Positions 12,941 to 52,100 of a stretch of DNA of 64,000 nt are shown piece after piece. Origin of the DNA: a virus (lineage: Duplodnaviria; Caudoviricetes); IMG/VR virus record IMGVR_UViG_3300050821_001527, positions 138,883 through 202,882 of that record. One strand, written 5' to 3'. Numbering within the stretch: position 1 is the first letter of the stretch; each line of letters starts with the position of its first letter. A program made the position numbers and the translations under genes. The notes under the pieces were generated by a model. That model was not told the DNA's origin and ran no database searches. It was given only the letters and a program-made list of their open reading frames with translations.

Positions 12941-12975
12941 TACGAATCAATAAAATTCAATAAATTGAAATAAAT

Positions 12976-13479
12976 ATGGCAACTTTTCGCGCAATCGTGG
13001 CAATGGGTGAAAATCGTGAAATCGGCGAGGGAGACAAGATTCCTTGGCGTCTCAAGGCCGATATGCAGCACTTTAAACGCACCACCATGAACGGCCATGT
13101 CCTTTTTGGCCGCAAGACGTTTGATTGCCTGCCCAATAAGACCCTCGTAAACCGCACCATTTGGGTTCTGACGCGCCGTAACCCTGACGGATGGACTAAG
13201 ACGACCAACCACGGTCTGACGCTCTCCTGCGCCACCAACGTCGTGGAATCGCTATCCCAGCTTCCCGACGGACAGGACTATTGGGTTTGTGGAGGTTCTC
13301 AAATCTATTCCCTGCTCTTGGACAAGCTGGACGAGGTAGTCTGCACCCATGTTTCGGGTAAATTTTCCCAAGCGGACGCCCACATGTCTGCATTCGAGCA
13401 TCTTTTCGCCCGAAAAGACATCTTGACTACCGGCGAAGGATACAGTATCGTCAGGTATTATGATAAGATTACTGGTTAG
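12976..13479 (+). CDS. folA: Dihydrofolate reductase
   Basis: IVAMGENREIG...IPW.LKADMQHFKRTT...GRKTFDCLP...L.NR...GGSQIY. Confidence 0.93.
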   Translation: MATFRAIVAMGENREIGEGDKIPWRLKADMQHFKRTTMNGHVLFGRKTFDCLPNKTLVNRTIWVLTRRNPDGWTKTTNHGLTLSCATNVVESLSQLPDGQDYWVCGGSQIYSLLLDKLDEVVCTHVSGKFSQADAHMSAFEHLFARKDILTTGEGYSIVRYYDKITG

Positions 13480-33739: not shown

Positions 33740-33934
33740 ATGAAACAAAAACTCTCACTACTTCTGTTGGCCGGGGTGCTGGCGTTGGCGGGTTGCAGGA
33801 GCGATTCTGCGTCCGCGATGCCCGAATATCGCCCGACCCCTTCGATTGACCTGTCCAACCCGGAGAGCCAGCGCAATTACGACGCCTATCTCAAGTGGCA
33901 GGCCGAACATGACGCACAAAAAGCCAAGCAATAA
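33740..33934 (+). CDS. Small lipoprotein
   Basis: LLLLAGVLALAGC lipobox; TATAAT just upstream. Confidence 0.7.
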   Translation: MKQKLSLLLLAGVLALAGCRSDSASAMPEYRPTPSIDLSNPESQRNYDAYLKWQAEHDAQKAKQ

Positions 33935-33971
33935 GCTTGACTTACGGGGAGGATTTGGTAGAGTAAGGGGA

Positions 33972-34517
33972 ATGAAAATCCTTTTCCTCGATATTGATGG
34001 CGTCCTGAACAGCGAAGAATCGTTCCACCTGAACCATCAGGCTCGTTGCGATGACGCCCACCGTAATGGCCGCGACGGGGCTTCCTTCAAGCCGGAATTT
34101 TGCTGGCCCTTGGGACACCTTCACACGCCCCTGATTGCCCGTCTGAATCAAATCATGGAGGACACTGGTTGCTTCATCGTCCTATCCTCGTCTTGGAGAA
34201 TCATTTGCGACTTGCCGGATTTGCGCGGCTGGATGAAGCAGAAGGGTTTCGAGTTTGGGGACAGGATGATTGACAAGACGGACAATGACCCGCAGGACGC
34301 CCGTGGCGGGCAGATACAGCGTTGGCTGGACGCGCACCCCGAAGTGACTGCCTACGCAATCCTTGACGATGATTCCGAGGATATTGTCGGAACCTACACC
34401 ACAAAACATCACCACAACAACTTTGTCCATACGCCTTTCATGTATGGCCTTCAAGACGAGCAGGTTGGACAGGTGTTTGAAATTTTGAATCGCAGGAATA
34501 AGTCCTTGACAGTTTGA
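33972..34517 (+). CDS. HAD-superfamily phosphatase (HAD_SAK_2, RNA-repair-associated type)
   Basis: MKILFLDIDGVLNS, VLSSSWR, RGGQIQRWL, AILDDD. Confidence 0.85.
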   Translation: MKILFLDIDGVLNSEESFHLNHQARCDDAHRNGRDGASFKPEFCWPLGHLHTPLIARLNQIMEDTGCFIVLSSSWRIICDLPDLRGWMKQKGFEFGDRMIDKTDNDPQDARGGQIQRWLDAHPEVTAYAILDDDSEDIVGTYTTKHHHNNFVHTPFMYGLQDEQVGQVFEILNRRNKSLTV

Positions 34518-34540
34518 GAAGTGATTGGTAGTCTAATTAT

Positions 34541-34676
34541 GGTCTGAGCGGTAGCTGGACGTAAGGCAGTAGTCGGTGGCTAAAACAGGAAGTGGCAGGA
34601 GTAATTGCCCTGCTTACCCTGATAAATCTAAGGCGAATCGAGCGTCCGAGGGGCTAACAGCCCTTCCTGACCACCA
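34541..34676 (+). ncRNA. tRNA-scaffold RNA 1 (136 nt, ends in ACCA)
   Basis: Starts 6 nt after the -10 box TAGTCT; acceptor GGTCTGA/CCTGACC (2 mismatches); internal helix GGACG/CGTCC; T-like arm AGGGG-CTAACAG-CCCTT; ACCA. Confidence 0.6.
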
Positions 34677-34681
34677 ATTTA

Positions 34682-36068
34682 ATGAAAAAAAAGAATCTCA
34701 TAGTGGCCTATCAAACGCCTGACGGCGAACTTCATCCCGTCTGCATGGCCTACAGCCATTTCCATTTGGGCGTGGATAATGCGGCGGTGTTTACCGAAGA
34801 CCAGCAGATTCGCCTCGCCATTGCCGCCGTCAAGAGCCAGAAGGCCCACTGGAAGGGTTTGTCCCGCGATGGGGCGTTTGCCATCATCAATATTGACAAG
34901 CCGCACGGGTATTCCATTTTTCTCGAAAACGCTGGCGGGATTCTTGCCCACAACTACAAGGGACAAATTCGTCGAGCGGCAATCAGGAGCATTAACGGCA
35001 TGAGCGCGGCGGCATGGTATGAGAAGCTGCGCGAACGCAAGTCTTTATGCGTCGTATGAGATTTGAAGAACGATGGGCCTTAACGAAACATGGTCTGATA
35101 ATTCCTACCATCAAGTATGGGGATTTTAGCCAAGTCATTCTCCTACCCCTTTTTCTGTTGAGGTTTCCGAGGCAGGATTGGCCAGAGATACCAATGTATC
35201 GTGACTTCCCGGCCCTGCCCGGAACAAATACGTGTGTTCTAGTCTATGGCAAGAAACAGATTGGCTTGAGCATAGATTCAAACGGGGAGTCCATTGGGGT
35301 AAGTCTTAGCCATCCCGTATCTAAGTATTGGTTGTCTATTTTGCAGCCAATTTGGAACGCTCATAAGCCTAAATGCCCGACGTGCCGCGATACTGGTTGG
35401 GACGGAATAGGATACACACTAACCTGTGTTGATTGCGGAAAGTCCAAATAAATATGATTAAATTTAAAGACATGGCGATAGGCCAGCGATTCTTCGCATG
35501 GGGCGATTGCGTCCTGAACTACAATTACCCGAAATGGTGCCTGTTGGAAAAGGTTGACGAAAGCACAGCCAAGGAAATCATGGCTGACGGCAGCGATGGC
35601 ATCAAGACCGGAATGGAAACGGCGGGGAGTTTCATCCCCGAAGTCAAGCACGTTTTCCTTGTCGAAGTCAGCGTCCTGAATCCCATTGACAAGCCCGGAA
35701 CGATTCAAGGTCATGTGGAGAAATTCTTGCAGAACGTCAATGACCTACAGACGCAAATCGGAAGTTCCTCCAACTTCACCATAAAACTCCTTGACAAGAG
35801 TGGAAGCGTTTGATAAGGTTAGAGCGTAATGAAATTCGTGAAAGCAAATCTCGACGGCGAAGAATTGAGATTGACGATTGAGGGCTTAGAAAGCCTTTTG
35901 GAAAACATGAAATCTTGGGGGCAAAAAGCTCCATTATATTCTCCCATGCGAGAGGTCTTTCTTGCTCAATGTGAACAAAGAAAGGCGCGAATATCCGGTC
36001 TGGTTGAATACTTTCAGATAGGATTGCTCAATACTCCGAACGGACAATTTATCGGAGACAAAATTTAA
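34682..36068 (+). other. Hypothetical CDS (34682-35059, 35047-35451, 35454-35813, 35829-36068)
   Basis: ORF track plus promoter positions. Confidence 0.65.
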
Positions 36069-36271
36069 CGGTGGATAGCTCAGGTTCAGAGCGCAAGCTT
36101 AATAAGCTTTCCTGAAAAGGATAGCCGCACATTACCCGAGAGAAAGCGGAAAAAGTTGGCCGTGAAATTGACGGCAGAACGTTCGTGAGTAAAGCGGATA
36201 TGGGTGGTTGTTGGGTTCAGGAGTAGATTACATCTACGAGGTCGAAGAATGAAATCCTTCTCCACTGACCA
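36069..36271 (+). ncRNA. tRNA-scaffold RNA 2 (203 nt, ends in ACCA)
   Basis: Acceptor CGGTGGA/TCCACTG; TA; D arm GCTC-AGGTTCA-GAGC; hairpin AAGC-TTAATAA-GCTT; domain of about 110 nt closed by TCCTGAA/TTCAGGA; hairpin GTAGA/TCTAC; GAGGTC; T arm GAAGA-ATGAAAT-CCTTC; ACCA. Confidence 0.75.
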
Positions 36272-36323
36272 TTTTGTCACTACATTACTTTCCCGTAGTG
36301 ACATTCTTAGTGTAATATCTGAT

Positions 36324-36887
36324 ATGAACGAGTCAGATTACATTGGAAAAACTTTCAACCGCATTACCATCATCGGGAAAGACGAAGAACGCACTACCAA
36401 AGATTGCTTCTATGTTACTGGCAAATGCACTTGCGGACGTATCAAGAGTTATGCCCGCCACCGATTGATGGGAAAGGATGCTCCGCAAAGCTGCGGCTGC
36501 ATTCAAAGAGAACTCAAGGCTGGTAAGAAATATCTCCCACCGGGAGAGGCCGCGATTCGTGAAACATGGAGAATTTACAAAGAGAATGCTAAACGTCGTA
36601 AGTTTTCTTTTTCCATTGATTTATTGAATTTTAAATCATTGACCCAAAAACCCTGTCATTATTGCGGGGCACCACCAACCAACGTCCACAAAACCCGCAC
36701 AAAGACGCCAGATTCTTGTTCTTATAGCGGTTTAGACCGAGTGAAGACGCGAGAGGGATATAGCGTAGAAAATGTCGTAACCTGTTGTGCAGTTTGTAAT
36801 TGGATGAAAGGGACGATGGAATACGCCGAATTCATCAAACAGGTCGAAAAAATATCGAATCACTTGAAAAGCCTTGACAGGAAGTGA
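36324..36887 (+). CDS. HNH homing-type endonuclease (PacI-like C-terminus)
   Basis: IGKTFNRITI...KCTCG N-terminus; CHYCG...GLDRV...GYSVENVVTCCAVCNWMKG; ATG 7 nt after GTGTAAT. Confidence 0.85.
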   Translation: MNESDYIGKTFNRITIIGKDEERTTKDCFYVTGKCTCGRIKSYARHRLMGKDAPQSCGCIQRELKAGKKYLPPGEAAIRETWRIYKENAKRRKFSFSIDLLNFKSLTQKPCHYCGAPPTNVHKTRTKTPDSCSYSGLDRVKTREGYSVENVVTCCAVCNWMKGTMEYAEFIKQVEKISNHLKSLDRK

Positions 36888-36908
36888 ATTTTGGTTTAAT
36901 TTCAGTAT

Positions 36909-37373
36909 ATGTTTGCGACACATAACTCAGCCGTCGAGTCCTTCCAATTCAGGTGGGCGGAACCTTTGGGCTATCCCGAGTGTCCTTACATGAAAAGATG
37001 GGTTTTTGTGTTTTTCGGTTACTCTATTCGCGTCCATCACTGGATTCGCAGCGACGACAAACGTTTCTTTCATTGTCACCCTTGGAACTTTCTGACCATC
37101 GTTCTCAAGGGTGGTTACACGGATGTATCGCCGTCTTTAGACCTGTTTCTTGACGCTCAGGAGCCTATTAGAGAGACTTTGACGGCTGGAATGGTCAAAT
37201 ACCGTCGCGCCGAACACAAGCACTATGTTGATGTTCCCGTGGGCGGGGCATGGACTCTGCTTCTGGCCGGACGCAAAAAGCGCAAGTGGGGCTTTTGGAT
37301 TAAGCCTAACCAGTTTTTCCGACCACTACGATATTTCAGTAAATACGGACACCCGCCCTGTTCGGAACAGTGA
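36909..37373 (+). CDS. Cupin-fold protein
   Basis: SIRVHHW..SD...FHCHPW.F.TIVLKGGY.D...HKH.V. Confidence 0.7.
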   Translation: MFATHNSAVESFQFRWAEPLGYPECPYMKRWVFVFFGYSIRVHHWIRSDDKRFFHCHPWNFLTIVLKGGYTDVSPSLDLFLDAQEPIRETLTAGMVKYRRAEHKHYVDVPVGGAWTLLLAGRKKRKWGFWIKPNQFFRPLRYFSKYGHPPCSEQ

Positions 37374-37505
37374 TTAGCTCTTAACCAGCAAGTCAACAGC
37401 AAGCAGAATAACAGCAACCGGGATTAGGGGCCACGAAGGTTTGACAAGGGCACCAATCGCCAAGGCGAGCGCGAGAACGGGCAGGATGACATGAATGTTG
37501 TTCAT
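37374..37505 (-). CDS. 43-aa two-TM peptide (absent from the ORF track)
   Basis: TTGGAT-17-TATAAT-5-ATG on the - strand; MNNIHVILPVLALALAIGALVKPSWPLIPVAVILLAVDLLVKS*. Confidence 0.7.
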   Translation of the reverse strand: MNNIHVILPVLALALAIGALVKPSWPLIPVAVILLAVDLLVKS

Positions 37506-37559
37506 GCCTTATTATATTGGAAGTCAGGTATTTATCCAAGGGGAAATCCCCGATAGAAA

Positions 37560-39311
37560 ATGAAAACTGTCAGAGAATGGACAAATAAGGCGATGGATAC
37601 GACTTTTCGATGGGATTTCGAGAAGTTGATACAATCCATTCAGATAGATGCCTTTAAAGCGGGGCGCAAATCCGCCCGCCACGTTTGCCGCGAAAGCAAG
37701 ACCTGTGCCTGCGATATTCAGGGTTTGGAACCCAATGAAGAATGTCCGGTGCATGGCGCGGGGGAATATCCTCCCCGTTGCGGAACCTGCGGGCGTTTTA
37801 TCACCCGCGACAATAAATCTCAATAAATATGAGCCTTTCACAAGACCCGGAACAACTCGAAAATCTTCCCTCCCGCGAAGTCATTCGTGTCAGCGACACC
37901 TACGACCACTATTGGGGCGAAGGGATGCCTTGGGCGCGTATGAACCGTTGGTTCGAGGCTCAGGAGGGGCGCAATGTTGACCGCGTTTTCCACGACTTCG
38001 TGCATCTGAAATGGCTGCTGGCCGAATATCGCACCAAGGAACAATTCCGCCGCCACATTGAAATGGACACCTTCGTCGTGGATGGAAGGGTTTGCTACTA
38101 CGACGCTTACCACTCCCGCTGGCAAAACGAGCCTTGGCAGGTTGTCGAGAAGCAGGCTCGCAAGACCATCTACGTCAATCCGACTACACACACCGTCGAA
38201 ATCTTCAAGCCTCCGACGGACAAAAGCTGGAAGTCCCGCTGGTATGCCGAACGTGCGGCGAAGGTCAAGGTGCTTGGCGATTACCACCAGCTTTACAAGA
38301 AAGACGGTATTTGGTATGAAGTCAAGGCGCAAAAGGCCACCAACCGTATGCTCCACTTCACCCCTTGGCGTTGCCCCTTGAAAAAGCCGGATGACATTCT
38401 GATGGAAAGCGGCGACTCGCCCTTGGGCCAGCCCATCCAAATCATCCTCAAACGCCAGCTTAACAGCAAGGAACTGCGTAAACATGGCTTGGCCAACGAC
38501 TTGAAATAATCTATGAAAATAAGAAACGAGAAAGTAATTGACGTGTCCGATTGGGACGGCTTGGTTGAGAAAACGTATGGCAGGCCATACAGCTTCCAAC
38601 AGCAAGACGGGTGCCAGAGCAGGGGTAGTTTCCGCTTTAGCGTCCCGAGCGACGAAGCCTGCGACTTTGAAAGCGAAACCGTGCCGGAAATCGTCAACCA
38701 TGAAACGATGGGCGTGAGCTTTGCCGCATGGCTCAAACGCGACCCCAAGGCGAAATTGGCCGGGGAGAAAGATTGTCCCGATTACTGTATCGAATTGTGG
38801 TGGCACCGCAATTTCTATCCTGAATTTCAAACGGTGGCGAATGACCTTCACGCCAAGGGACTTCTGGAAGCCGGGGACTACACCATCAACATTGACTGGT
38901 AAATAAAATTCAATAAATATATGCTAGGCTACATCATACTCATTCTCCTGTTGGCCGTGTTTGTGGCGGCGTTCATCGTCGTCCGCAACCAGCGCGACAA
39001 AATCTACGATTCGATGGTCGAATATCGTCGCATGTATTGGGCTGAATGTGACCGTGCCGACGACTTGGAAATCAGGCTCATAGACGGGCCGAAACCCCCA
39101 AAGGATTGACGTGGAAAGACTTACGCTTAACCAGCAAGAGGATTGGCAGACATGGAAGCAGTCTATGGGGCGTTATTCGGGCATTGACTTCGACAAGGAG
39201 CCTACCCATTATCCGTGTATCTTGTTGTGGTTCAACTATGATATTCGAGGCTCCAAACATGATGGGGGTGGCCACGATTTTGTTTACAGGGAAGATTTGG
39301 AAAAGCTTTGA
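37560..39311 (+). other. Hypothetical CDS (37560-37826, 37829-38509, 38513-38902, 38921-39109, 39111-39311)
   Basis: Tightly packed ORFs. Confidence 0.65.
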
Positions 39312-39388
39312 TTTTCCCTTGACAGTTCAAGAATTATCTGTCAGAGTAATAGAGTAGTCGCAGTAAAAACCTAAACTTAAAACCTAAA

Positions 39389-41455
39389 ATGATTCAACTC
39401 GACAAACCCAACACGGTAATTTCCAGCGGCATCGAAAACGCTGTCTCCTTCGGCATCAAGCAGGAAGGACTGGCCCACATCTTCTCCGTTCTCCGCAATC
39501 AACTGTATTCTGACAAGACCCTCGCCGTAATCCGCGAGTATTGCACGAATGCCGTTGACGCCCATGTCGAAGCCGGGAAAGCCCTACTGCCCATCAAGGT
39601 CACGCTGCCCTCCCGCTTCAATCTGGTGTTCAAGGTGCGCGATTTCGGCTTGGGCCTGACCGAGCAGGACATTCAGGACATTTACGCCTTCTACGGCGAA
39701 TCCACGAAGCGCAAGAGCAACGCCATGATTGGGCAGTTGGGCTTGGGCAGCAAGTCGGCTTTCGCCTACGGTGACAATTTCGTCATCACTTCCTACACCA
39801 ACGGAACCAAGACCACCTACAACGCCTTCATTGACGTGACGCAGATTGGTCAAATCGCCAAGTTGGGCAGCGAACCCACCGACGAGCCGAATGGTGTTGA
39901 GATTTCCATTGGCGTCCGCGAGGATGACGTGGAAGATTTCCACAGCAAGGCCGAGAACCTTTTCAAGTATTTCAAGGTCAAGCCGGAAATTGACGGCGCG
40001 GATTTCAAGTTTGAAGCCCGTGTTCCCATCATGGAAGGCAAGGGCTGGCGCGTGTTCAGCGGCACTTCCGTTGCCGTCATGGGCAACATCGGCTACCCGC
40101 TCGAAAACCACACGAAGGACAACCAGATTGCCGAAGCTTTGACGGCGGGCATTGAAGTTGATTTCAACATCGGCGACTTGGAAATTTCCGCCTCCCGCGA
40201 AAAGCTGCAATACACTGACCGCACCAAGGCTGCGGTGGAAGCCAAGCTGCGTGAAGTCATCAAGGAAGCGGGCGAGCAGTTGAACAAGCGTTTCGCCGCC
40301 TGCGCGACGTTGTTTGACGCGATGAAGCTGTATGGACAGGTCATGGACTACGGTTCTAGTCTGTATCCCCTGCGCGGCCTGTTGAAGAAGAATCTGATGT
40401 TCAACGGCACTTCGATTTCGAGTAGCCGCCTACACTTCCAAACGCCGAATGACGGTAGTTGGAACGTGCGTGAATACAGCCTGACCTACCGCTCGAAGCG
40501 CGTCCGCTCGAATCAGGTCAACGTGATTGACTGTGACGAAAAGACGGTTGTGGTTCTGAACGACTTGGGCCTGCGCGGTGGGATTCCGAATCGCGTCCAT
40601 GCCAATGTCATGGCGGGCAAGCGTGTCTATGTCGCCTACTATGCGAACAAGGACAGCGCGAAGTTCTTGAAGGAAACCGGACTGGTGGATGCGAACTGCA
40701 TCCTCCTTAGCTCGCTGCCGAAAGTCAGCTTGGCGACTGCCGGTAATTCCGGTGGCGGGGCGAAGAACAGCAAGCACGGTCTTAGCGTGTTCTCCTTCGA
40801 TTACGCCGCTTCCAAGAACATGACCCGCTATTCCAGCCGCAATTCCGACTACTGGAAGCCCGAAACGGTGGACGTGGCGAATGATGCCGGTGTCTATGTC
40901 ATCATTGACCAGTTCAACTTCCAGACCCGCAACAGTGGTTGGGATAGCCCGAGCGACATGCGCCGTCTGATTGAACGCTTGGAAAAGTTGGGCATCACGG
41001 TGCCGACCATCTACGGGTTCAAGGCCAAGCAGTTTGAGAAGGCCCGCAAGAACGCCAAGATGGTTAGCCTGTGGAACTGGCTCGACACCACGCTGGCCGC
41101 GTATTTCACCACGAATGACATTTCGCAGAAGCTCGCCAATCGCATCGAGTTCAACAACAACAGGGGTTCTGAAAGTTGGATTCGCACCTTGATGGCCCAC
41201 GCCAGCGAGTTGACTCCCAAGACGAGTGCTGCCGGGACTGCGGAGTTCCTGCGCCATCTGGAATGCTCTGGCGAAGCTGCGAAGCTGGACGCTTGCGCCG
41301 AGTTTTCGGGTTACGTGACGCTGGTGAAGCCCGAGTTCACCATGTCCGAAATTGCGAAGGACTTCAACGCGAAGTATCCCTTGCTCAAGTTCGTCAACTT
41401 CGGCCAGCCGAATAGCTGGATTGCGACACTCGCATACATCAACTTGGTTGGGTAA
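39389..41455 (+). CDS. rIIA: rIIA-like protein (N-terminal GHKL/HATPase domain)
   Basis: LYSDKTLAVIREYCTNAVDAH, VRDFGLGL, STKRKSN..IGQLGLGSKSAFAY, ISASREKL.YT. Confidence 0.88.
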   Translation: MIQLDKPNTVISSGIENAVSFGIKQEGLAHIFSVLRNQLYSDKTLAVIREYCTNAVDAHVEAGKALLPIKVTLPSRFNLVFKVRDFGLGLTEQDIQDIYAFYGESTKRKSNAMIGQLGLGSKSAFAYGDNFVITSYTNGTKTTYNAFIDVTQIGQIAKLGSEPTDEPNGVEISIGVREDDVEDFHSKAENLFKYFKVKPEIDGADFKFEARVPIMEGKGWRVFSGTSVAVMGNIGYPLENHTKDNQIAEALTAGIEVDFNIGDLEISASREKLQYTDRTKAAVEAKLREVIKEAGEQLNKRFAACATLFDAMKLYGQVMDYGSSLYPLRGLLKKNLMFNGTSISSSRLHFQTPNDGSWNVREYSLTYRSKRVRSNQVNVIDCDEKTVVVLNDLGLRGGIPNRVHANVMAGKRVYVAYYANKDSAKFLKETGLVDANCILLSSLPKVSLATAGNSGGGAKNSKHGLSVFSFDYAASKNMTRYSSRNSDYWKPETVDVANDAGVYVIIDQFNFQTRNSGWDSPSDMRRLIERLEKLGITVPTIYGFKAKQFEKARKNAKMVSLWNWLDTTLAAYFTTNDISQKLANRIEFNNNRGSESWIRTLMAHASELTPKTSAAGTAEFLRHLECSGEAAKLDACAEFSGYVTLVKPEFTMSEIAKDFNAKYPLLKFVNFGQPNSWIATLAYINLVG

Positions 41456-41479
41456 GTTTTAGGTCTTACTCGATTACTC

Positions 41480-41514
41480 AGGGCGGCGGGGAGAGTTCCT
41501 CGCCGCCCTTATTT
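41480..41514 (+). terminator. Intrinsic terminator after rIIA
   Basis: AGGGCGGCGGGGA-GAGT-TCCTCGCCGCCCT-TATTT. Confidence 0.85.
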
Positions 41515-41525
41515 AATTCAATTTA

Positions 41526-44500
41526 ATGCAACGCACACTCAAAGATGCAAGTTGGGATAAGCCTTATGCCGTCATCGGCATCATAGACGCTTACGGGGCC
41601 ATCCACCATCGCCCTGTGACCCTCAACAATGATGCGAAGTCCCATGACCATTACTGGCCGGGGCAGACCCATAAGCGTTGGCGTTTGACGATTTCCGAAT
41701 GGCAGTTGGAGAACAGCGTCCTGTCCCGCGAAAACAAACTGACCCCGGAGGAAGCGGAGGACGTGTATGCCGTGTGTCGTAAAGCCTATACCCCGCCTCG
41801 CTGGTTGGTCAAGGGCGAGGAATGGGAGGCGTTAGGTCGTCCGCGCTCTGGCAAGGCTTACGACGCCCACTGTGCCAAGTGGGACGCTATTATGGCCAAA
41901 CCGCAATGGCCATGAGATACGAACGCCGCTCCTATCATACGTGGTATGTCTGGACGCCCAAGGGCAGGCTCTATTGTGTCTCCACCCTCAACCGCAAGCG
42001 CATGATGAAACAGCTTAAACGCTCTAGGAAAAACCTGCGAAAATTGGGCCATTGGGCTTGACAGGCGGGAAAAGACTGGTAGATTCATTATATGGCCCGA
42101 AGCAAAAAGACTAATCCGAGTCCCAAGAAGGTTGTTGATTTGTCCAAGGTGGACATTAGCAACGATTTCCGCGATTTTCCTCAACTCTACTCGACCCCCG
42201 AGGACATTCAGAAGTATATCGGCGAGCGCAAGTTGGACGTGCCCGTCCTGAGCCATATCTTGAAGCTGCGCGAAACCGGGAAACTCGATGCAACCCCCAC
42301 GGAATTAGAGTTTTACTTCGCGGAACTGTTCGATTACATCTACGACGTTTACCGTGTCCCGGTGCCGGAAACTTATCGCCGCATGGACGACTGGTTGCAG
42401 CATATCGAACTGGAACTGGTCTATGGTGGCTTTGCCCATGTTCGTGCCCATGCGTATGAATTTGCCCTTAACCGCTACCGCACCCACAAAGAGTCCGAGG
42501 CCATATTCAAGGACATTGGTGTTGAGCGCGACCCGCTGCCCCAAATCAACTGTGTCACCAAATTGGAGATAGAACACCATCCCCAATTCTACATCAGCAC
42601 GAACCCGAAGCTGATTGAGTCGTTTTGGATTCACTCGTCCCGCCACTCAGGGCAACCCGAACGTGTTGGCGATGAAGCCTATATGCGAGTCCATGTTTAC
42701 CCGGACAGGGTTTACATCATGGGCTGCGACGACTGCTCCTACACCTTGCGAACCAAGAACGCTGACGAGGCTAAGGCTTTCGCGGAGTATCTGAAAACCG
42801 CCGCCCCGGTCTGGTGCTTTGGGAATTTTAAGCAGATTCACAAAGACCTTGAATTTACGAATTGACAAGGGTAGAAAACCTGCTAGGATTAGATTATGGA
42901 CTGGCAACCGACAATGCGACATGCTGAAATTAACGGAGTCAAGCTTACCGAAGGACAGGCTATGACAATCCATGCCGCTTTAGTGGGTTTCTCGCAGGAT
43001 TTGAGGGCCAACGGTCTTGGCGAGGACGAGCATGGAAAAACGATGACCCGTCTCTATCTCAAAAACATCCAGAGCCTTTTTGACCTTTACCTGAACAAGT
43101 AAACTATGGGTTACGAATACATCCAAACCACGGAAGTCAAAGGCGTTACAGCCGAGAAAGTCGCCGACGAAATCTCGAAGCTGATGCAGCTACGCTGTGT
43201 CAACAAAATCGTCGTAAAGCACGTCGGCGGTTGGATTTACGACATTTCCTGCGAGAACGAGGAACATGGAGTCACTTACTAACATGCCTAAAGTAACCAA
43301 AGAACTGATTCGCAAATTTGAAATCGGCGACCCGTTGACCGATAACGAATGCCGCGCCCTGTATGACTTTTTCGCGGAGCTACAGGATAGCCTGTCACTG
43401 ATGGGTGCGGAATACCATATCGCTTGGGTGCCAATCATGCACAAACGAAACGCGGTGGAGGGTTATCTTCGCGCCCGCAACAAGAATGTATGAACTGGTG
43501 GAAGCAACGCCGCAATGGTCAACCGACCAAATCCAAGTCCAAAAAAGGCTCGTTCTTTAACAGCGCGAACGTTACTTGGGTTTGCCTCAAGCACGGTAAG
43601 ACTTCCCGCTCCCGTTTTGGCGCGTCCTGCCCGGTCTGCCGCGAACCTATGAAGTCTATGGGCTATCGTTGGCGTGTGGGACGCAATGGGCAGCTAACCA
43701 AGCAAGAAAACTTTACAAAGTCCAAGCTAGACCGCAGAGCATCAAGAATATGAGAACATCACAACTCGAACCGGCTCTCAAAGAGTCATTCACTGAAATC
43801 GAATCGGCCACCAGCCGTAAACGCGGCAAAAAGCTTTACATGACTGTCAAGCTTAAAAAGTGGAGTCTGGACAACCATCGCCTCATGTTGAAGATTCAGG
43901 AGGCGTTGAAAAGCTACTTCCCGCGCATTTCCATGACCAGTTTCGGCGGGGAGAATGCCACGTTCCGACTTAACCCTTGACACGCCCGAAAATCCTGATA
44001 GATTAAGTATATGAAAGACCTACTCGAAGCGTTGCAAATCATGGCGAAGTATATGGACGACGAGTATGCTCCCACCTGTTGCGAGCATGACGTGCTGTAT
44101 GTCCCCACGGTTGACTACGACAAGGTATCCGCTGCCGACAAAAAGCGTCTGGATGAATTGGGATTCATTGAAAACACGGACGGCGGGCAGGGGTTCATGT
44201 CTTATCGTTTCGGAAGTTGCTGATTTATGACTACGTTATCCAAAGCCCGCGCAGACCAAATCGCCGACGAGTGGAGTGGAGCTTATCGCGCTGATTACAA
44301 TGGCCGCGAAGTTTCCGTCCAGATTATCCGCGCATTGTTCGAGGAAGGAATTAACAAGGCCGACGCGAGGGAAATCTATTTCTCGAAACACCTTCGCTGG
44401 TTCTTCGACGGACAGGGCGACAATGTGCCGGTGAAGGTCGCGGCGGAACGCTTCAAGGCGTATCTTAAACGCAACGCCAACTCCGTAAAAAGCATGTTCA

Positions 44501-45229
44501 AGAGCGAACTGCAACGCCCCTTGTCCGTTCAAGGACTGGGATGGAACGAGTGATTTATGAAATTCCGAGAGCTAAAGGTAGGCGACACGTTCCGATTCAG
44601 GTCGGAACATAGCCCGGAAGAAATCCGCAAGAAAGTCGCCTATCGAAAGTATGTGGACTTTCAAACTCGCACCATTTATGGTCTTGGCCCCGGCGACCCG
44701 AATTACGTGAAAAAAGCAAGGGGCGAATCGCCAGTAGTAAAAGTATGAAGCCCGGATATACGCTGGTCTATTTTGAATGTTGGACACACCCGCAGTCGGG
44801 TAGAGTCTTTCGCCAAAAGACCACAGAGCATTCTAGGTCGCTGGCAAAGTTGCAGAAACTTATCGTTTCTCGCAGGAAGCTTTACAAACAATGGAACAAC
44901 GGACGCTTCATAAGGGGCATACGTTATTTCGAGACTTTTGAGATATGTTAGACATAGCACCAAACGAATTTTTCCTCGAAGAAATTGTCTTCCTCGAAAC
45001 CGTCATCAAGCGCATGGCGGGGCGAGACGTTGATTCGTGGGCAGTCTTTACCAAGGAACCGGCGAACCAAAAAGGATACGTCTGGTGGGTGAACAGATAC
45101 GAGCATGGCGGGCACATCCTATCTCCCATGTGGGTGAAGGAAACCCGCAAGAAACTCGTTGGCAGGCCATTGGCTGAGTGCATTAAGCTCGCCCTGTCTT
45201 ACGAGAGGTCTTACGCGGACGGTTGGTAA
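41526..45229 (+). other. Array of about 13 hypothetical CDS (including 41526-41915, 42092-42865, 42896-43102, 43266-43493, 44011-44223, 44227-44553, 44945-45229)
   Basis: Several leaderless promoter-proximal starts. Confidence 0.65.
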
Positions 45230-45244
45230 TTTAATTCAATTTAT

Positions 45245-45622
45245 ATGGAATTTCACAAGCATTGGACTTTTCAGGAGCGAAGCGTGGATTGGGCGCACAA
45301 GTGTTTCGGCCCCGTCATCGTGAACAACACGAAGGAGCGCGGGCATCGTTTCCTTGAGGAAGCTGTAGAACTGTTCCAGTCAATCGGACGCCCCAAAGAG
45401 GAAGCTCTGGCGTTGGTGGATTATGTCTATGGTCGCCCGGTGGGTGACAGGCAGCAGGAGATTGGCGGGGTAATGGTCACGCTGGCCGTTCTCTGCGCGG
45501 CTCTAGGCGAGGACATGCACGAACTTGGCGACACGGAACTGGGGCGAGTCATCCAGAAGATTGATAAAATCCGCGCCAACCATCAAGCAAAAATTGCAAT
45601 CAGACCACCAACAGAAATTTAA
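45245..45622 (+). CDS. MazG-like NTP pyrophosphohydrolase
   Basis: ERGHRFLEEAVEL...QEIGGVMVTL. Confidence 0.65.
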   Translation: MEFHKHWTFQERSVDWAHKCFGPVIVNNTKERGHRFLEEAVELFQSIGRPKEEALALVDYVYGRPVGDRQQEIGGVMVTLAVLCAALGEDMHELGDTELGRVIQKIDKIRANHQAKIAIRPPTEI

Positions 45623-45890
45623 CCATTATGATTACTGACTCCATTGTGTCCAGTTGTGGTGGGTGGGACGAGGCCGGTGAATACGGCGACGTTCAACTCT
45701 ATCAAGCCGTTCTTGCCATTGATACCAAAAAGTTCAAAAAGGGGCAGACCGTCGAGACTATAAGCTTCGTATTCTCCAAGAGCCTGTGCCAAATTTGGGA
45801 CAAGGCGGGCTGCGAAAGCGCAGATGGGTGTCAGCCTATGGAAGTAATTGAGGAATTTGCGCTCGTTCTCACGCCCGTCTTTAACCTGTA

Positions 45891-46223
45891 ATGCGCGTAA
45901 AATTCCAAGTCCCCATTCACGACGTTGCCGTGGTTGTAACAGTCACGGATAACATTCCCGCCGCCTACAAGAAAGAGTTCGGTATAGAGATAGGCGACAG
46001 TCGGATGGCGTGTCTAGGCTATCATGGCCGCAAGTTCGGATTGTTTTTCGAGCCTGCCGCCAAACGCAGACTGGAAATCGTCGCACATGAAATCTTTCAC
46101 CTGACCCACCGCATTCTTGAGAAGAACTGCATGAATTTTGACGAGTTGCACCATGAGCAGGGTGCGTATCTCTGCGAATATCTGACCAAGCGAGTGCTGA
46201 AAATTCTGAACCAAAAGCAATGA
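45891..46223 (+). CDS. HExxH zincin-like protein
   Basis: IVAHEIFH...EQGAYL. Confidence 0.55.
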   Translation: MRVKFQVPIHDVAVVVTVTDNIPAAYKKEFGIEIGDSRMACLGYHGRKFGLFFEPAAKRRLEIVAHEIFHLTHRILEKNCMNFDELHHEQGAYLCEYLTKRVLKILNQKQ

Positions 46224-46891
46224 AACCCAAACGCATCTATCTAGTCCGTCACGGCCAGTCGGAAGGCAACGTGGATAGGGCTGTTCGCGCTCTAAAGCCC
46301 GATTACGCCCTCAAGCTTACCGAAACGGGCATTAGGCAGGCCGATGCCGTGGGCAGGGAGCTACTGCAACAGATAGGATTGCAGCCAGTCCAGTTCTATA
46401 TCTCCCCGTTCTGGCGCACACGTCAGACCTATCAGCAAATCGTGAAGTTTTTCCCGCTCTCCAATTTTTACGAAGACCCTCGCCTTCGTGAACAGGAATG
46501 GGGTCATTTCAGGGACGAGCAGCGTGACGTGCCTTTGGAAAAGGAGCGCGACAGCTATGGACACTTCTACTATCGCCTGCCTGATGGCGAGTCGTGCGCT
46601 GATGTTTACGACAGGGTAAGCGACATGATTCAAACCATGTGGCGTGACTTTGCCAAGCCGGAATATCCGAGCGAGGTTATCGTGGTCAACCACGGCATGA
46701 CCATGCGTGTGTTTCTCATGCGCTGGCTACACTGGTCGGTGGAAGAATTTGAAATCATTGCCAACCCCGGCAACTGCGAATATCACTTGTTGGAACTGGA
46801 CGAGCGCACCGACAGGTATAAACTGGTCACAAAGCCGCGCCGTTACGAGAGTTACAATCACCCTTACCAGTTTGATTGGAAAACCGCGTGA
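46220..46891 (+). CDS. Histidine phosphatase (phosphoglycerate mutase superfamily)
   Basis: LVRHGQSEGN, LTETG..QA, SPFWRTRQT, LREQEWG, GES..DV..R, VNHG. Confidence 0.92.
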   Translation: MKPKRIYLVRHGQSEGNVDRAVRALKPDYALKLTETGIRQADAVGRELLQQIGLQPVQFYISPFWRTRQTYQQIVKFFPLSNFYEDPRLREQEWGHFRDEQRDVPLEKERDSYGHFYYRLPDGESCADVYDRVSDMIQTMWRDFAKPEYPSEVIVVNHGMTMRVFLMRWLHWSVEEFEIIANPGNCEYHLLELDERTDRYKLVTKPRRYESYNHPYQFDWKTA

Positions 46892-47367
46892 ACCAATATA
46901 TTTCATTTTTAATCGCCACCGGGGACTTACGCTGTGTCGAGCAAAGGTTTGGCAAGCGCAAGTATCAGTGGTTCCAAACAGTTAGCCCTTGGCTGGACAA
47001 CGGAAGGGAATTGGATGCGTGGATGATTCCAATTCTTAATTGTGCTTGACAGACCCCGAATGCTTTGGTAGGGTTAGAACATGCAAGACGAACCAGTAAT
47101 CGGGTGGCCTTTGGAAGATGCCTTGAAATTGATTTCCGAGGCGTATGACATTTACGCTTGGCTGGACGTGAACAAAACTACCCATCGTTCCATTCGCCTG
47201 ACGCCCGAAAACGCGAGACAGTGGTGCATCGAAGTCGCCGGGGATGGATTCAAGAAAATCCCCCTGTTTCGCAACGGCACCACGATTTTTCTCGGCAGCG
47301 TCGAGGGAAGAATTTAACCCTTGACAAGCGGGGAAAAGGTGTGTAGGGTTAGAGTATAAGATTTTTC

Positions 47368-47382
47368 GTTCTTTTGACAATT
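47368..47382 (+). promoter_or_regulatory. BoxA-like element in the ncRNA operon leader
   Basis: GTTCTTTTGACAATT between the promoter at 47321 and the tRNA-like elements; resembles rrn boxA. Confidence 0.4.
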
Positions 47383-47391
47383 ATAGTCTCC

Positions 47392-47463
47392 GTGTCATTC
47401 GTCTAATGAAGGACAATCGGGCCTTGAACCCGAAAAGTATAGGACGCAATGCCTTTATGATAA
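47392..47463 (+). tRNA. Degenerate tRNA-Gln(TTG)-like element
   Basis: D stem GTCT/GGAC; anticodon arm TCGGG-CCTTGAA-CCCGA; weak T arm ATAGG/CCTTT lacking TTC; no CCA. Confidence 0.55.
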
Positions 47464-47748
47464 ACGGCGGCAAGGGATTGAGTTTTGATTGTAAAACATG
47501 CCGTGCATGGCCTGTTTCTTAGTCCCGCGTTTTTTTCCTGCAAGAAACTCGTTCGGTGGGTATTGCGATAGACTAAAAACCCTCCAAGGCGGCAAGTGCC
47601 CCGGTTCTGATACAGCCGAAAACTTGCATGTGGATTGCATCTACCAGTCCAGCTTTTAGACTTTTGTGCTACAACAATAATCCGTTAGGTTGCTGATTCG
47701 ATAATATGCAAACAGTGTTAGCTCTTTGACTACAACAAAGACCGCCGT
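47464..47748 (+). ncRNA. tRNA-scaffold RNA 3 (285 nt)
   Basis: Acceptor-like ACGGCGG/CCGCCGT stacked on a T-like arm TCTTTG-ACTACAA-CAAAGA; internal stems GTTTT/AAAAC, GTTTCTT/AAGAAAC, TTGCATGT/ATATGCAA; no ORF. Confidence 0.6.
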
Positions 47749-47835
47749 TTTATTCCTCCTAGAAAGGGTTTTGGGGCGCAATCCAAAATTACAATTTCAG
47801 TTGACAATGGTAGAAACATTTGCTTAAATTAGACT

Positions 47836-48222
47836 ATGAAAATCAAAATCAATCGTGAATCTCTCGACGCTTTCGCTTCCCGCCTGTTCTATCTGGCGTG
47901 GCAGGCTTGTGGTGGCCCGCTTGGTATGGGTGTCTTTCAAGACCGTCCCGGTGCCTCCGAAAAGGACGTTTTCAACAATGTAATCACGGCGGGCGACTAC
48001 GCCGGGGCGTTTGGTCGCGGCAAAAACGAGGTCTATGGCGACTACGTGTTTGGCCGAATGATGAAGTTCGGATTCACCATCTTGGACGATGGCGTTATCC
48101 AGTTCCGCAACACGGACTTCCGCCCCGATTATCAAGGGTTCTCGCGCAAGTATCCCACGATTGAAGCCTTGTTGAAGGCCACCGTGGAAAGCACCGGCAT
48201 CCCATACGAAGTTGTGGAGTAA
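47836..48222 (+). CDS. Hypothetical protein between the ncRNA blocks
   Basis: Leaderless start after TTGACA-18-TAAATT. Confidence 0.75.
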   Translation: MKIKINRESLDAFASRLFYLAWQACGGPLGMGVFQDRPGASEKDVFNNVITAGDYAGAFGRGKNEVYGDYVFGRMMKFGFTILDDGVIQFRNTDFRPDYQGFSRKYPTIEALLKATVESTGIPYEVVE

Positions 48223-48226
48223 TTTG

Positions 48227-48354
48227 GTCTGCCCCATACGCTCTGGTTAATGCGGACGGGTTAAGCGGGATGCTTCCTATCCAAAGACAGATGGCAGACA
48301 GGTTCCGCGTGTTCGCGGACGCACCGCTAGATTGAACCAGCAAGACTAGCGGGG
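48227..48354 (+). ncRNA. Structured non-coding elements (73-nt closed element plus a pseudoknot-like element)
   Basis: GTCTGCC/GGCAGAC; CCGCG/CGCGG; CCGCTAG/CTAGCGG with loop GAACC complementary to GGTTC at 48301. Confidence 0.45.
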
Positions 48355-48358
48355 AATT

Positions 48359-48632
48359 TGACGTGTGGCGGAATGTAAAGACGCAAGGCGAAAACACGGT
48401 CTAGCTGAGTAAGTCGGGGAGAACGCTACCCGAAAGTAAACTACTGAAATGCGGCAAGTCCTGAATTGACAGGCAGCGCGAACTGACCAGAACCAACTGG
48501 TGATACCGTTGATGGCGTAAGTAGCTCCACCATCAATCTGTGTGTAAGACCAATGGCTGAAATATGCCGACAGAAAGCGCATAAGATTAGTGAGCCGATA
48601 TATCCATGCAGGTTTAAATCCTGCCACGTCAA
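48359..48632 (+). ncRNA. tRNA-scaffold RNA 4 (about 273 nt, Leu/Ser-like ends)
   Basis: Perfect acceptor TGACGTG/CACGTCA; TG-GCG-GAATGTAAAGA-CGC D arm; T arm GCAGG-TTTAAAT-CCTGC; about 220-nt multi-hairpin insert. Confidence 0.75.
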
Positions 48633-48958
48633 AAAAATTCAATAAATATCAACGCTCAAGAGATTGACAACTACATCAAGGCGAATCACGCCGAAGCTTG
48701 GCCCGCAGTCAAGGCCGCTATCAGGCAGGCGATGGCTTATGCCGTCGAGGTCAACAACCAGAAGCCAAGGACAGTGATGGTTGAACACAATGGTCTTTGG
48801 GCTGGACGTGTCGCCACTGATGTTGAGGGCGAACTGAGTGTTATCATCGCCAATGACAACGCTTTCGACTTGCTCCAAGGCCGTTCCCCGCTTCCTTACG
48901 TCAAAGACATTACCCCAAGCGAGGCGACCCGCAAAAGACTTGTTGAAATTGCCACCGC

Positions 48959-49111
48959 ATGAACGCATTCGAGCAGGGCTATCAAGCTAACTTGCTCTCT
49001 GAAAACCCCTTTTGGAAGGACTATCCTAACCAGAAAACCCCGGACGACGAAAAGATTCGAGCGTGGCAATGGGTGGACGGTTACGTGCAGAAAATCATTG
49101 ACAATCACTGA
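48959..49111 (+). CDS. Ribosome-modulation-factor-like small protein (absent from the ORF track)
   Basis: MNAFEQGYQA...ENPF...RAWQWVDGY resembles the RMF pattern A..RGYQA...CPY...R..WL.GW. Confidence 0.45.
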   Translation: MNAFEQGYQANLLSENPFWKDYPNQKTPDDEKIRAWQWVDGYVQKIIDNH

Positions 49112-49132
49112 CAACCTTGATAGTCTCATTCT

Positions 49133-52100
49133 ATGCTTGACATTCCCAAAGGCACAAACATCTATCGTGCGGCTGAAATGGCCGTTGCGGAAGCCCGTCG
49201 TTTCCGTATGGAAGTGCAGTTCGAGTTTAACGAGATTTACTTGAGCGTTTCCCCGCTTTCCTGCGCCGACGATATTGCCGTCATCTACAGCCTGAAATCT
49301 GAAATCCGCCGTTTAAAGGCTTGACAAACACTGAAAGAGCCGTTAAGGTCTAATCATGTTCTTCCTCGAAAAATTCAAAATCCGCGAATGGGGACAGGTC
49401 ATTCGTGACGGCAACGACAAGTTGGTGTTGTTGTATGGCGGCGACCCTATCGCCTTCATCAATCACCGCTGTATGTATATCCGTCGTGCCCCGCTTGGTA
49501 AGAACGACGATTTGACCCAAACCATCGCCGATTTTTCCAAAATGTATAAGCATTGGATTGAGTCCACGGTTATGGAGGACTCGGCTATCACCAATCTGAC
49601 AATCTCAAACTGATGAAAAACATCGTCAAAACCCTCGTCCAACTCGCCCTGCAAGCCGAACCCCTTCGTCGCCAGATTGATGAACAGGTCAAAAGGGTGG
49701 CTATCGAATGGTCGCAGGCTGATTCGTGGCGTTACCAGCATGGTGTTGACCGTCCCACCAAAACCGATTCGATTAACTCATGGAGCATTGACGGGGGCGG
49801 CATGGTGACTGTCCGCTGGTCGGAAACGTGGAACTACGGCGGCTATGCCGATGGTGACTTTGACTTTCCCGCGAAGTATATCTATGACGCTGACGCCCTC
49901 GTCCAGTGGACGCAGGACTGTCGCGCCGTTCAGAAGTCCAATGAGGCCGACGAAGCCGCAAGGCAGCGTGAGATTGACAGGGCGCAGTTGGAACGTTTAC
50001 AGGCGAAACTGGCACAGGCTTGATTATGGAAAAAGACCGCAAAGATTGGACGTTTGAGGAACTGAATTTGCATTGCTGCAAAATCATCTTGGAGCATCTG
50101 TTGAACGGCTCGTTTAAAACGGGCGTCTATATGGCCCTCCAAGTCGCCGTCATGTGGCACGATGAACAGAAACCACAAACAGAGCTTGACAAGAGGCGAA
50201 ACAGTCGTTAAGGTTATTCTATGCCGAATAATCCGTTAGTCAAAAGCCGCATTCTTTTAAATCCGATGAACGAAAAGTCTTTTTCTCACGTCTCCCGTTG
50301 GGGCACTGAGTTCCAATCGTTTCGTTGCGATTTTCGTAACGGAGTGGCGGTTAAGAATGCTCCGAAGGATAAGGCTAAACTTGCGAGCGACGTAGCTGAA
50401 ATGATTGGTTATCATTCTGTCGCAATCTGGCCCAACTTGAACGGGTTTCAGGGCTATGACTGCATCCAGTGGGCGTTTATATGAAGTGGAGTAAGACCAG
50501 ACCCAAGACGGTAGGCCATTACTGGTTTCAGGATGGCCTGACGAACAACCCAAGGATACTTCGTGTGACCAAGGAAGATGGTAAACTTTGGGCACAGGAC
50601 GAGGAAATCAGTTGCTCTTTCAAGCCGGGAAGTAAAATCACAGACCCGGATGACCTTGAGGAATGGGGCAGCGAACCCATCCCCGAACCGACGGAATAAA
50701 AATTCAATTTAATGAAAATCCATCGCTACAGGAAAACCGTTTACCGCTCCTTCAAGGGCCGTATCATCTGGAAAGACTCGGAAGGGTATTTCATTGATGG
50801 CTGGCCTTTCGAGGGCGTTAATGGTCTGCGCTTTTCCAGTCTTAGGAAAGTGAGAGTGGCGATTAGATTGTGGATAACCTTCTGCATGAACGTCTTTAAG
50901 CTCAACCGCTACCTGAACATGCTAACGGTTGACCCGAGCAACTACAGTGGTTGTTATGGGAAATTCATTAGCATTGAGAAACTCGAAAAACTTGTCAAAC
51001 GATGAAAAACCTAGCCTCCCATGACGAATCCCCGGAAAACGTCGCCTCGACGGACACCGCCCTGATTGCCGAACTGACTGCTGCGGGCATCCCCTGCGAA
51101 ATCCAGCCGAAACAGGTTGGTGGCGAAGTCCAGACCCGAGTGATGGGCAAGGCCGGGAACTTCGTCTTTGACCGTCGTTGGTATTATTGGGCGGTTGACG
51201 GGCGAGTCCCGCTGGAAGTAGCCAAGGAAATCTACGCCCTTGACTCAGGGAAGGTCGTTCGCGTTTCCGGTCACTGTATGGCTCCCACGCCCGAAGAATG
51301 GGCCATAGCCTACGAGGACGCCACCGGACGCATGGTGGTGGATGACGTGGAATGGGAAAAGGGACTCAAGATGTTCAGTGGCGAGCATTGGAAGGATACT
51401 TTGGTCAGGTGGAACACGGAACACGTCCCGCAAAGCAAGGCCGGGGCATCCTCGACCTTCGTGACTTCGTATCATATTGACACGCAGGAGGGTTTGAACC
51501 TGTTTACGTCGGTGCTACGCAAGCACAAACTAATCCCTTGACACAGGTGCAATTTTTGATAGGATGATTATATGCTAGAGACTTTCTGGAAAAGCAAACG
51601 CGCCAATTACCGTGTCATCCTCAAAAGCGGGGCGGATTATCGCTTGAGCGCGGAAAATTGCAAAATCAAATGGAACGAAGCAACCGGGAGTTTAATTTCC
51701 TATGAGTTTATCAGGCCCAAGGGCGAGGTTCCGTTCCATTGTTCGCCGCTTGAAATCGCCGCAATTCTTAAATTGGCTTGACAGCAATCGAAAATCAGGT
51801 AGGATAACTATATGACGCGAGACATTCCACTCTATCCAGACCGAACGCCAACCGAGGAAGGTCACTACATCTTCAAGGGTAAGTATTCCGGTCATGTGGA
51901 GTTGATTCATGTGCTGAATGCTGTGGGTTTTCGCGGCACCTATCTTGGGATTGTGAGTCATCGTGGCCGAAACGTCCTCGCGCTCCAAGGTTCGTTCAGC
52001 GAGAAACTCAACTTCCCCGTCCAATAAAATTCAATTTATATATGAGCAAGAACAAAGAACTCGCCCTCCGTGGACTCAGTTACCTTCGTGGTGACGATTT

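Follow-up and report, generated by a model that had tools for sequence, protein, structure and literature searches.

That clusters of phage transfer RNA (tRNA) genes also encode stable tRNA-like RNAs, such as species 1 and 2 of T4, has been established for decades. These products of rnaC and rnaD are stable RNAs of about 120-140 nucleotides (nt) encoded in the T4 tRNA cluster, and their function is unknown; rnaC, which bears large extra hairpins and folds with a z-score of -4.6, ends in a canonical GGUUCGAAUCC T arm and then an acceptor-type strand. In transfer-messenger RNA (tmRNA; RF00023) an acceptor and T arm are kept around a large structured domain, and in intron-bearing tRNA genes (group I introns in bacteria and phages, bulge-helix-bulge introns in archaea) the cloverleaf is restored on removal of the intron. 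Y RNAs of the YrlA type, which are bound by Ro60/Rsr, contain a tRNA-mimicking module and are often encoded with RtcB-type RNA repair genes; their topology is permuted, with the free ends in the Ro-binding stem and the acceptor-like stem closed by a loop (Chen et al. 2014, PMC4201824). Here, we examine four non-coding segments, numbered 1 to 4, in the final 64 kilobases (kb) of a jumbo phage record from soil (IMG/VR record IMGVR_UViG_3300050821_001527; 202,882 base pairs (bp), estimated completeness 91%). The original prediction had placed all four in a single family of giant RNAs built on a tRNA scaffold. We find that segment 2 is, convincingly, a tRNA-derived gene with a large structured insert. 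The fuller account that we prefer, which is tentative and which we judge a little short of even, adds two lineage-specific non-coding RNA domains (segments 3 and 4) and one structured leader (segment 1); membership of all four in one family of giant tRNA scaffolds is not demonstrated.

The stretch analyzed, referred to as the window, spans record positions 138883-202882 (G000:C1). Coordinates without a prefix are those of the window, and the prefix G000 denotes the whole phage record. Four runs contain the phage, two of DNA and two metatranscriptomes. Coding potential was scored in all six frames with a codon model built from the long open reading frames (ORFs) of the phage; all four segments had negative coding scores in every frame and the neighboring genes had positive ones, in agreement with the non-coding status first proposed. 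The expectation that tRNA scanners would miss the segments was also borne out. ARAGORN reports no genes in the window, and Rfam, tmRNA included, gives no match there at the gathering score, which for the tRNA model (RF00005) is 29 bits. Permissive Rfam searches of small regions (expectation value E<=10) yielded only noise, except that the 5' part of segment 2 aligned to the tRNA model with 16.6 bits; the tRNA and tmRNA models gave no match to segments 1, 3 and 4 at this level.

Segment 2 comprises three parts:

36069..36109, + strand: 5' tRNA half, with acceptor strand (36069-36075), D arm (36078-36092) and anticodon stem-loop (36094-36109), anticodon AAT at 36101-36103
36110..36237, + strand: insert, consisting of an irregular rod of 113 nt with UCCUGAA/UUCAGGA as its closing helix and of the hairpin GUAGAU-UAC-AUCUAC at 36223-36237
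36238..36271, + strand: 3' tRNA half, with G43, variable loop AGGUC, T arm GAAGA-AUGAAAU-CCUUC, acceptor strand (36261-36267) and ACCA (36268-36271)

In the 5' half, the acceptor strand CGGUGGA is followed by UA, a D arm (GCUC-AGGUUCA-GAGC), a single G and an anticodon arm with stem CAAGC, loop UUAAUAA (U33, anticodon AAU, A37) and GCUU(G). On the 3' side, the acceptor strand UCCACUG completes a 7-bp acceptor stem that includes one G-U pair (G2-U71), and is followed by an encoded ACCA. The 16.6-bit Rfam alignment covers the acceptor, D arm and anticodon arm, and the minimum free energy (MFE) fold of the segment retains all three helices. The insert lies at the junction of the anticodon stem and the variable loop, after stem position 42. 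When 36110-36237 are dropped, the anticodon stem becomes a perfect 5-bp helix in a 75-nt cloverleaf of the Ile(AAU) type with an encoded CCA. The proposal of a large folded insert in a tRNA frame therefore holds for segment 2, but the insert does not replace the anticodon region, as the anticodon arm is retained. In a genome-wide scan for frames ending in NCCA, segment 2 was the only one longer than 150 nt that has a D arm.

Of the four segments, only segment 2 folds exceptionally well (z = -3.4), as does its insert (z = -4.4); for segments 1, 3 and 4 the z-scores range from -1.1 to -2.0. The insert has an MFE of -43.6 kcal/mol, which was equalled by none of 200 shuffled sequences, while its reverse complement reaches only -28.4 kcal/mol; the + strand is thus 15 kcal/mol more stable, and this asymmetry points to a structure of the + strand RNA that relies on G-U pairs. 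The strand-specific stability argues against the alternative that the insert is a DNA palindrome or a miniature inverted-repeat transposable element (MITE). No second copy of the insert was found anywhere in the phage genome. An RNA contig (35844-36259, run X4) crosses the insert without a gap, and no joint that would indicate splicing is present in any of the four runs. A 15-nt hairpin nearly identical to that at 36223-36237 (GUAGAU-UAC-AUCUAC) occurs in segment 3 at 47630-47644 (GUGGAU-UGC-AUCUAC); the two differ by an A-U to G-U change in the stem and are the only sites in the genome that fit the pattern.

Segment 2 begins directly after the stop codon of a 79-amino-acid (aa) ORF. We propose that its RNA would be made and kept unspliced, with the 128-nt insert included. 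The tRNA frame would most likely supply end processing, in the form of an RNase P cut immediately 3' of the upstream ORF's stop codon, together with a CCA terminus that is protected. The work itself would then fall to the rigid, G-U-rich rod, which might, for instance, dock a protein or serve as a decoy. On such a scheme the RNA may be processed at its ends, may be stable and may act in docking or as a decoy. We doubt that segment 2 serves as a decoding tRNA.

The best analogues of segment 2 are the stable tRNA-like RNAs of phage tRNA clusters. Segment 2 carries encoded ends at which an RNA of that kind would be processed, and is known here from the sequence and from assembled RNA contigs. The T4 cluster includes the homing endonuclease gene segB, and here an HNH-type gene follows segment 2. 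Unlike T4 rnaC, segment 2 lies about 44 kb from the tRNA array of its phage and has a complete anticodon arm and a non-canonical T loop. Its insert is larger than that of rnaC and is placed at the variable-region junction, and the two RNAs have no sequence similarity.

The phage encodes further RNAs of this general design outside the window, where a large tRNA array lies at G000 ~116-134 kb. The array has 25 Rfam tRNA matches above threshold and about 45 tRNA genes by the NCCA frame scan, all with an encoded NCCA end. The T loops of these tRNAs likewise deviate from the canonical form (e.g. UGCGAGU, AGCGUUA), but differently from those of the segments. The tmRNA of the phage was located by ARAGORN at G000 108618-109001. 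Three elements in or near the array are relevant here:

G000:C1:125416-125563: tRNA-frame RNA in the array, 148 nt, with 7-bp acceptor, D arm with GG, canonical T arm CUCGG-UUCGAUU-CCGGG and ACCA; about 70 nt of structured RNA takes the place of the anticodon arm
G000:C1:126421-126556: tRNA-frame RNA in the array, 136 nt, called by ARAGORN as a tRNA with a 62-nt intervening sequence
G000:C1:109007-109122: tmRNA-like RNA, 116 nt, directly after the tmRNA

The phage thus builds RNAs on tRNA frames, and the array examples are clearer than the segments; the existence of array RNAs with inserts makes such a reading of segment 2 more likely from the outset. Without its insert, segment 2 is no more similar to the array tRNAs than shuffled sequence is.

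Segments 3 and 4, which share a strand and are separated by 900 nt, occupy non-coding DNA to either side of a conserved 128-aa gene:

47321..47349, + strand: promoter before segment 3 (TTGACA-N17-TAGGGT), predicted to drive about 430 nt of non-coding RNA that includes segment 3
47462..47750, + strand: segment 3, non-coding; 9-bp closing helix AAACGGCGG/CCGCCGUUU abutting a hairpin at 47723-47741 (6 bp, loop ACUACAA)
47769..47788, + strand: hairpin after segment 3 (UUUUGG-N8-CCAAAA), just upstream of the promoter at 47801
47836..48222, + strand: conserved 128-aa gene between segments 3 and 4, with more than 140 phage and metagenome homologues (141 matches)
48357..48633, + strand: segment 4, non-coding; 9-bp closing helix UUUGACGUG/CACGUCAAA abutting a hairpin at 48608-48624 (5 bp, loop UUUAAAU)

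The promoter at 47801 is placed to drive the 128-aa gene and then about 420 nt of non-coding RNA including segment 4. Both segments are represented by RNA contigs in run X3, at depths far above the 3-6 seen for other phage genes: 88.7 for the contig that includes segment 3 (47119-47773, ending within the hairpin that follows the segment) and 31.1 for that of segment 4 (47818-48594). Such uneven cover argues for RNA and against DNA carry-over. Missing RNA cover was not used as evidence; X3 has no contig over 48595-48985, and is the only run that includes the segment 3 region. The segment 4 contig enters Illumina adapter sequence after 48594, 14 nt short of the T-like hairpin, so this was the end of some complementary DNA (cDNA) fragments. 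The proposed 3' strand of segment 4 may thus be missing from the abundant RNA, although the hint is a weak one. As regards discrete transcripts, on which the original prediction depended, RNA cover is present, but for segment 4 it stops before the proposed T arm.

Segments 3 and 4 are real, abundant, lineage-specific and strongly transcribed non-coding domains. They probably have a common origin or binding partner, since they share both the motif GCGGCAAG and the design of their ends, in which a closing helix abuts a hairpin with a 7-nt loop. GCGGCAAG is found at 47467 and 47589 in segment 3 and at 48451 in segment 4, i.e. three times within 1 kb as against 10 same-strand occurrences in 203 kb. 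A second motif, CUACAACAA...CCGUU, is present in two copies in segment 3, and no tandem repeats of the ToxI type were found. The closing helix of segment 3 persists in both the MFE and the centroid structure of a larger context. At about 280 nt, both segments are within the size range of tmRNA. Neither, however, resembles an acceptor stem with a free NCCA end, because the 9-bp helices exceed 7 bp and can be extended into the flanks, and no CCA is encoded. A D/T-loop signature is likewise absent, and nothing shows that the ends are read as a tRNA minihelix. The 12 nt at 48521-48532 within segment 4 (GTAGCTCCACCA) are also those with which the 116-nt tmRNA-like RNA ends, namely its acceptor 3' strand and ACCA; there is no adjoining 5' strand or T arm, and the match could be either coincidental or a remnant. 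Contigs of DNA run X2 agree perfectly with the phage as far as 47423, after which there is none until ~49447. This gap (47424-49447) spans segment 3, the 128-aa gene and segment 4, and may reflect strain variation or an assembly break.

Segment 1 differs from the other three in its setting:

34506..34534, + strand: sigma-70-like promoter read from the sequence (TTGACA-N17-TAGTCT), with the transcript start predicted at ~34541, where segment 1 begins
34541..34676, + strand: segment 1, non-coding, 136 nt, the probable leader of the gene at 34682, with a cloverleaf-like fold and the end ACCACCA

The promoter start at 34541, weak acceptor pairing and unremarkable fold (z = -1.7) make segment 1 most likely the structured 5' leader of a lineage-specific gene cassette. 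Two of its seven acceptor pairs are mismatched, and its hairpin at the T position has no T-loop features. RNA cover of the segment is ordinary, and with no terminator in between the transcript would continue into the gene at 34682. It may instead be a small tmRNA-like RNA; no homologue was found at the corresponding position in related phages.

When the four segments are compared, little of the shared architecture remains. All T-type loops have the sequences first reported, none of them canonical: CUAACAG, AUGAAAU, ACUACAA and UUUAAAU in segments 1 to 4, respectively. Encoded ACCA ends are indeed present in two segments, 1 and 2. The 7-bp acceptor described for all is found in segment 2, but segment 1 forms only 5 of the 7 pairs and segments 3 and 4 have perfect 9-bp helices instead. 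Of the two D arms described, that of segment 2 (GCUC/GAGC) is a true one, whereas the "D arm" of segment 4 has only 3 bp. A hairpin of the 5-6 bp described for the T arm is present in segment 3 (6 bp) and segment 4 (5 bp), but not in segment 2, where there are 4 bp plus an A-C mismatch. Only segment 2 has an anticodon arm at the correct position. The elbow signature of tRNA (G53-C61, U54...A58 with U55 C56, and GG in the D loop) was not found, and a U54-A58 pair is possible only in segment 4. Comparisons of the segments with one another and with the array elements gave no significant similarity, apart from two short borderline matches, and segments 1, 3 and 4 failed every tRNA-specific test run.

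In a loose form (7-bp stem, 5-bp hairpin and 7-nt loop, with at most one G-U pair each) the geometric frame occurs 48 times within the window alone; as it is so common by chance, the case from a shared frame is much weaker than was claimed. The strict form, which requires a perfect 9-bp helix directly next to a hairpin with a perfect stem of 5-6 bp and a 7-nt loop, was found at three sites genome-wide on both strands as against 0.4 in shuffled sequences, and two of the three are segments 3 and 4.

Likeness to the other known tRNA-like RNAs is also limited. Unlike tmRNA, none of the four segments has a G3-U70 pair (the third pairs are U-A, G-C, G-C and A-U) or a tag ORF. Unlike YrlA, the free ends here form the acceptor-like helix; the RtcB gene in the window is a point of likeness. 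A TROVE/Ro60 gene was not found in the 203-kb genome in searches whose controls were positive, and there is no Rfam match to YrlA. The lack of a Ro60/TROVE gene weakens the earlier suggestion that the segments act as Y RNAs. The RNA-repair genes that had been noted in the window are present, namely RtcB (16415-17584), HAD_SAK_2 (33846-34517) and a His_Phos_1 phosphatase (46220-46891). The window also encodes an ATP-dependent DNA-ligase-family protein and a metallophosphatase.

Searches for relatives of the segments gave no match to either segment region by megablast and blastn against 50,697 phage records, nor did blastn and nhmmer searches with the four gaps against 310 kb of related-phage loci. 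The D-arm pattern had only two chance matches in IMG/VR, both inside coding sequence, and the D-arm plus anticodon-loop pattern had none in JGI metagenome contigs. A strict frame scan of the relatives' loci, which was cluttered by runs of N, returned true tRNAs and chance-level matches only. Synteny was followed by means of the 128-aa protein and HAD_SAK_2, and the flanking genes proved to be conserved in relatives from which the segments are absent. In these phages at most one small ORF comes between HAD_SAK_2 and a downstream HATPase gene of ~690 aa; here, the two are separated by 4.9 kb (34518-39388, up to a 688-aa HATPase_c_3 gene), which places segments 1 and 2 in a lineage-specific island. 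The island also contains the HNH/endonuclease VII-like gene and a cysteine-dioxygenase-like gene (36909-37373). Immediately downstream of segment 2 are:

36276..36302, + strand: hairpin of 8 bp (GTCACTAC ... GTAGTGAC), terminator-like in sequence, with a weak U tract
36327..36887, + strand: HNH/endonuclease VII-like (homing-type) gene, matching PHROG phrog_1035, 3118 and 3322 (E 1e-11 to 1e-13)

The 186-aa endonuclease has no close homologue in the protein collection beyond the phage itself.

The 128-aa protein has invariant G, D, Y and R residues and a confident AlphaFold model (predicted local distance difference test, pLDDT, 91), for which no structural match was found in PDB or AlphaFold clusters. 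In several relatives its gene lies immediately upstream of a PolyA_pol-family gene of the CCA-adding type. Its closest relatives (63-71% identity) have tightly packed protein genes with no room for elements of the segment 3/4 type. In two related phage contigs, runs of N occur inside large non-coding gaps near the 128-aa homologue (L009 ~13299-13370 and L013 ~4855-4954).

Strong sigma-70-like promoters resembling those before segments 1 and 3 form a family, TTGACA-N16/17-TAG(G/A/T)nT, with members at 34506, 42058, 42862, 43977, 47046 and 47321. A second motif was found throughout the phage genome, and one copy marks the 3' boundary of segment 4:

47046-47074, + strand: twin of the segment 3 promoter (TTGACA-N17-TAGGGT), preceding a 78-aa ORF
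48635..48647, + strand: phage-wide motif copy, AAATTCAATAAAT, at the 3' boundary of segment 4

The predicted start of the promoter at 47046 falls on the ATG of the 78-aa ORF (47081), so that its mRNA would be leaderless. The phage-wide motif, (A)AAATTCAATAAAT or AAATTCAATTTAT, has about 35 near-identical copies in the genome, most of which directly abut an ATG. Sites are found, for example, at 12953, 19366, 22789, 28201, 31214, 33704, 37816 and 38906, and further ones at 52027, 53037, 53947, 56238 and 56768; a small number have ATC in place of ATG, with the start of the ORF lying farther on. The motif is probably a phage-specific promoter or leaderless-start signal. In the ORF that follows segment 4 (48618-48962), coding potential begins at ~48639, 93 nt upstream of the first ATG (48732), which would fit a start codon other than ATG, or one set by the adjoining motif.

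Several points weigh against our preferred account. Every structure described here rests on a single sequence and, as no homologues were found, lacks the backing of covariation. The RNA evidence consists of assembled contigs from one or two soil metatranscriptomes, which carry no information on strand, ends or local depth. The T arm of segment 2 is non-canonical, with an A53-C61 mismatch and the loop AUGAAAU, and the insert-free body is rejected by ARAGORN as well. For segments 3 and 4 the fold is no better than that of shuffled sequences (z from -0.4 to -2.0) and is not asymmetric between the strands, and two strong tandem promoters may explain their high RNA level without any special stability of the RNA. 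Finally, all four segments lie in lineage-specific DNA that could be neutral. In an explanation that we regard as unlikely but worth taking seriously, the segments have no function in common: segment 2 would be a tRNA pseudogene in decay, with an insertion, on an island mobilized by the endonuclease, and segments 1, 3 and 4 would be ordinary leaders, 3' untranslated regions and spacers whose "frames" arose by chance or local duplication. The absence of all four segments from the nearest relatives and the lack of homologues are consistent with this, as are the unexceptional folds of segments 1, 3 and 4 and the short internal repeats in 47300-48700, which suggest duplication; strong promoters alone could account for RNA abundance. 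The strand-specific stability of the segment 2 insert is nevertheless hard to explain without selection on the RNA. Moreover, the strict architecture and the clustering of GCGGCAAG in segments 3 and 4 exceed chance, and ORF-free stretches of 400-500 nt are rare in so densely coding a genome.

At the other extreme, the original prediction would make all four segments one tRNA-scaffold RNA family, with an acceptor/T minihelix read by host tRNA enzymes and inserts that may act as decoys, inhibitors or adaptors. We consider this improbable. That the phage does build RNAs on tRNA frames, as segment 2 and the array elements attest, speaks for it, together with the RNA repair genes, the above-chance helix-on-hairpin design of segments 3 and 4, the loop of segment 4 (UUUAAAU, which fits a U54-A58 T-loop pair) and the 15-nt hairpin that segments 2 and 3 alone share. 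These are set against the lack of significant similarity among the four, the absence of a tRNA or tmRNA model match to segments 1, 3 and 4, the over-long helices of segments 3 and 4 without CCA or D/T-loop signature, the acceptor mismatches of segment 1, the chance frequency of the loose frame and, as a weak hint only, the end of the segment 4 contig before its T-like hairpin. A related proposal, in which tRNA frames serve as a modular chassis beneath segment 2, the 116-, 136- and 148-nt elements and possibly segments 3 and 4, and would yield stable, properly processed RNAs with inserts that would bind or mislead tRNA-acting proteins, seems to us no less improbable. A very unlikely explanation for segment 2 is that it is an intron-bearing tRNA-Ile(AAU), from which an endonuclease removes 128 nt and the phage RtcB seals the halves to give a 75-nt decoding tRNA. 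It would account for the perfect anticodon stem and canonical-length cloverleaf obtained when the insert is removed, an RtcB-type ligase is available in the window, a homing-type endonuclease gene adjoins the segment, and another tRNA of the array is called by ARAGORN with a 62-nt intervening sequence. Unlike group I introns of tRNA genes, however, the 128-nt insert lies outside the anticodon loop, and it matches neither the group I model (RF00028) nor any other Rfam family at E<=10. Bulge-helix-bulge motifs are near chance (7 as against 3.6 in shuffled sequences), and none brackets the insert or yields a cloverleaf. The RNA contig is unspliced, and no splicing was seen in these limited data, although contigs could miss a rare spliced form. 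The T arm is non-canonical, the spliced body is not accepted by ARAGORN, and, Arg(ACG) aside, bacteria rarely have anticodons with A34.

What was proposed as a family of four is therefore limited to a single tRNA-derived gene, beside two abundant non-coding RNAs and one probable leader. Defences that target tRNA, and the repair or replacement of tRNAs by phages, are an active field. If the chassis proposal were true, the phage would possess an RNA-based counter-defence toolkit alongside its RtcB, HAD_SAK, phosphatase and CCA-adding genes, aimed at host or phage proteins such as anticodon nucleases and repair or processing enzymes. Segment 2, whose structured insert at the variable-region junction is unusually large for a tRNA-derived phage RNA, provides a concrete, testable example of a tRNA frame that serves something besides decoding.

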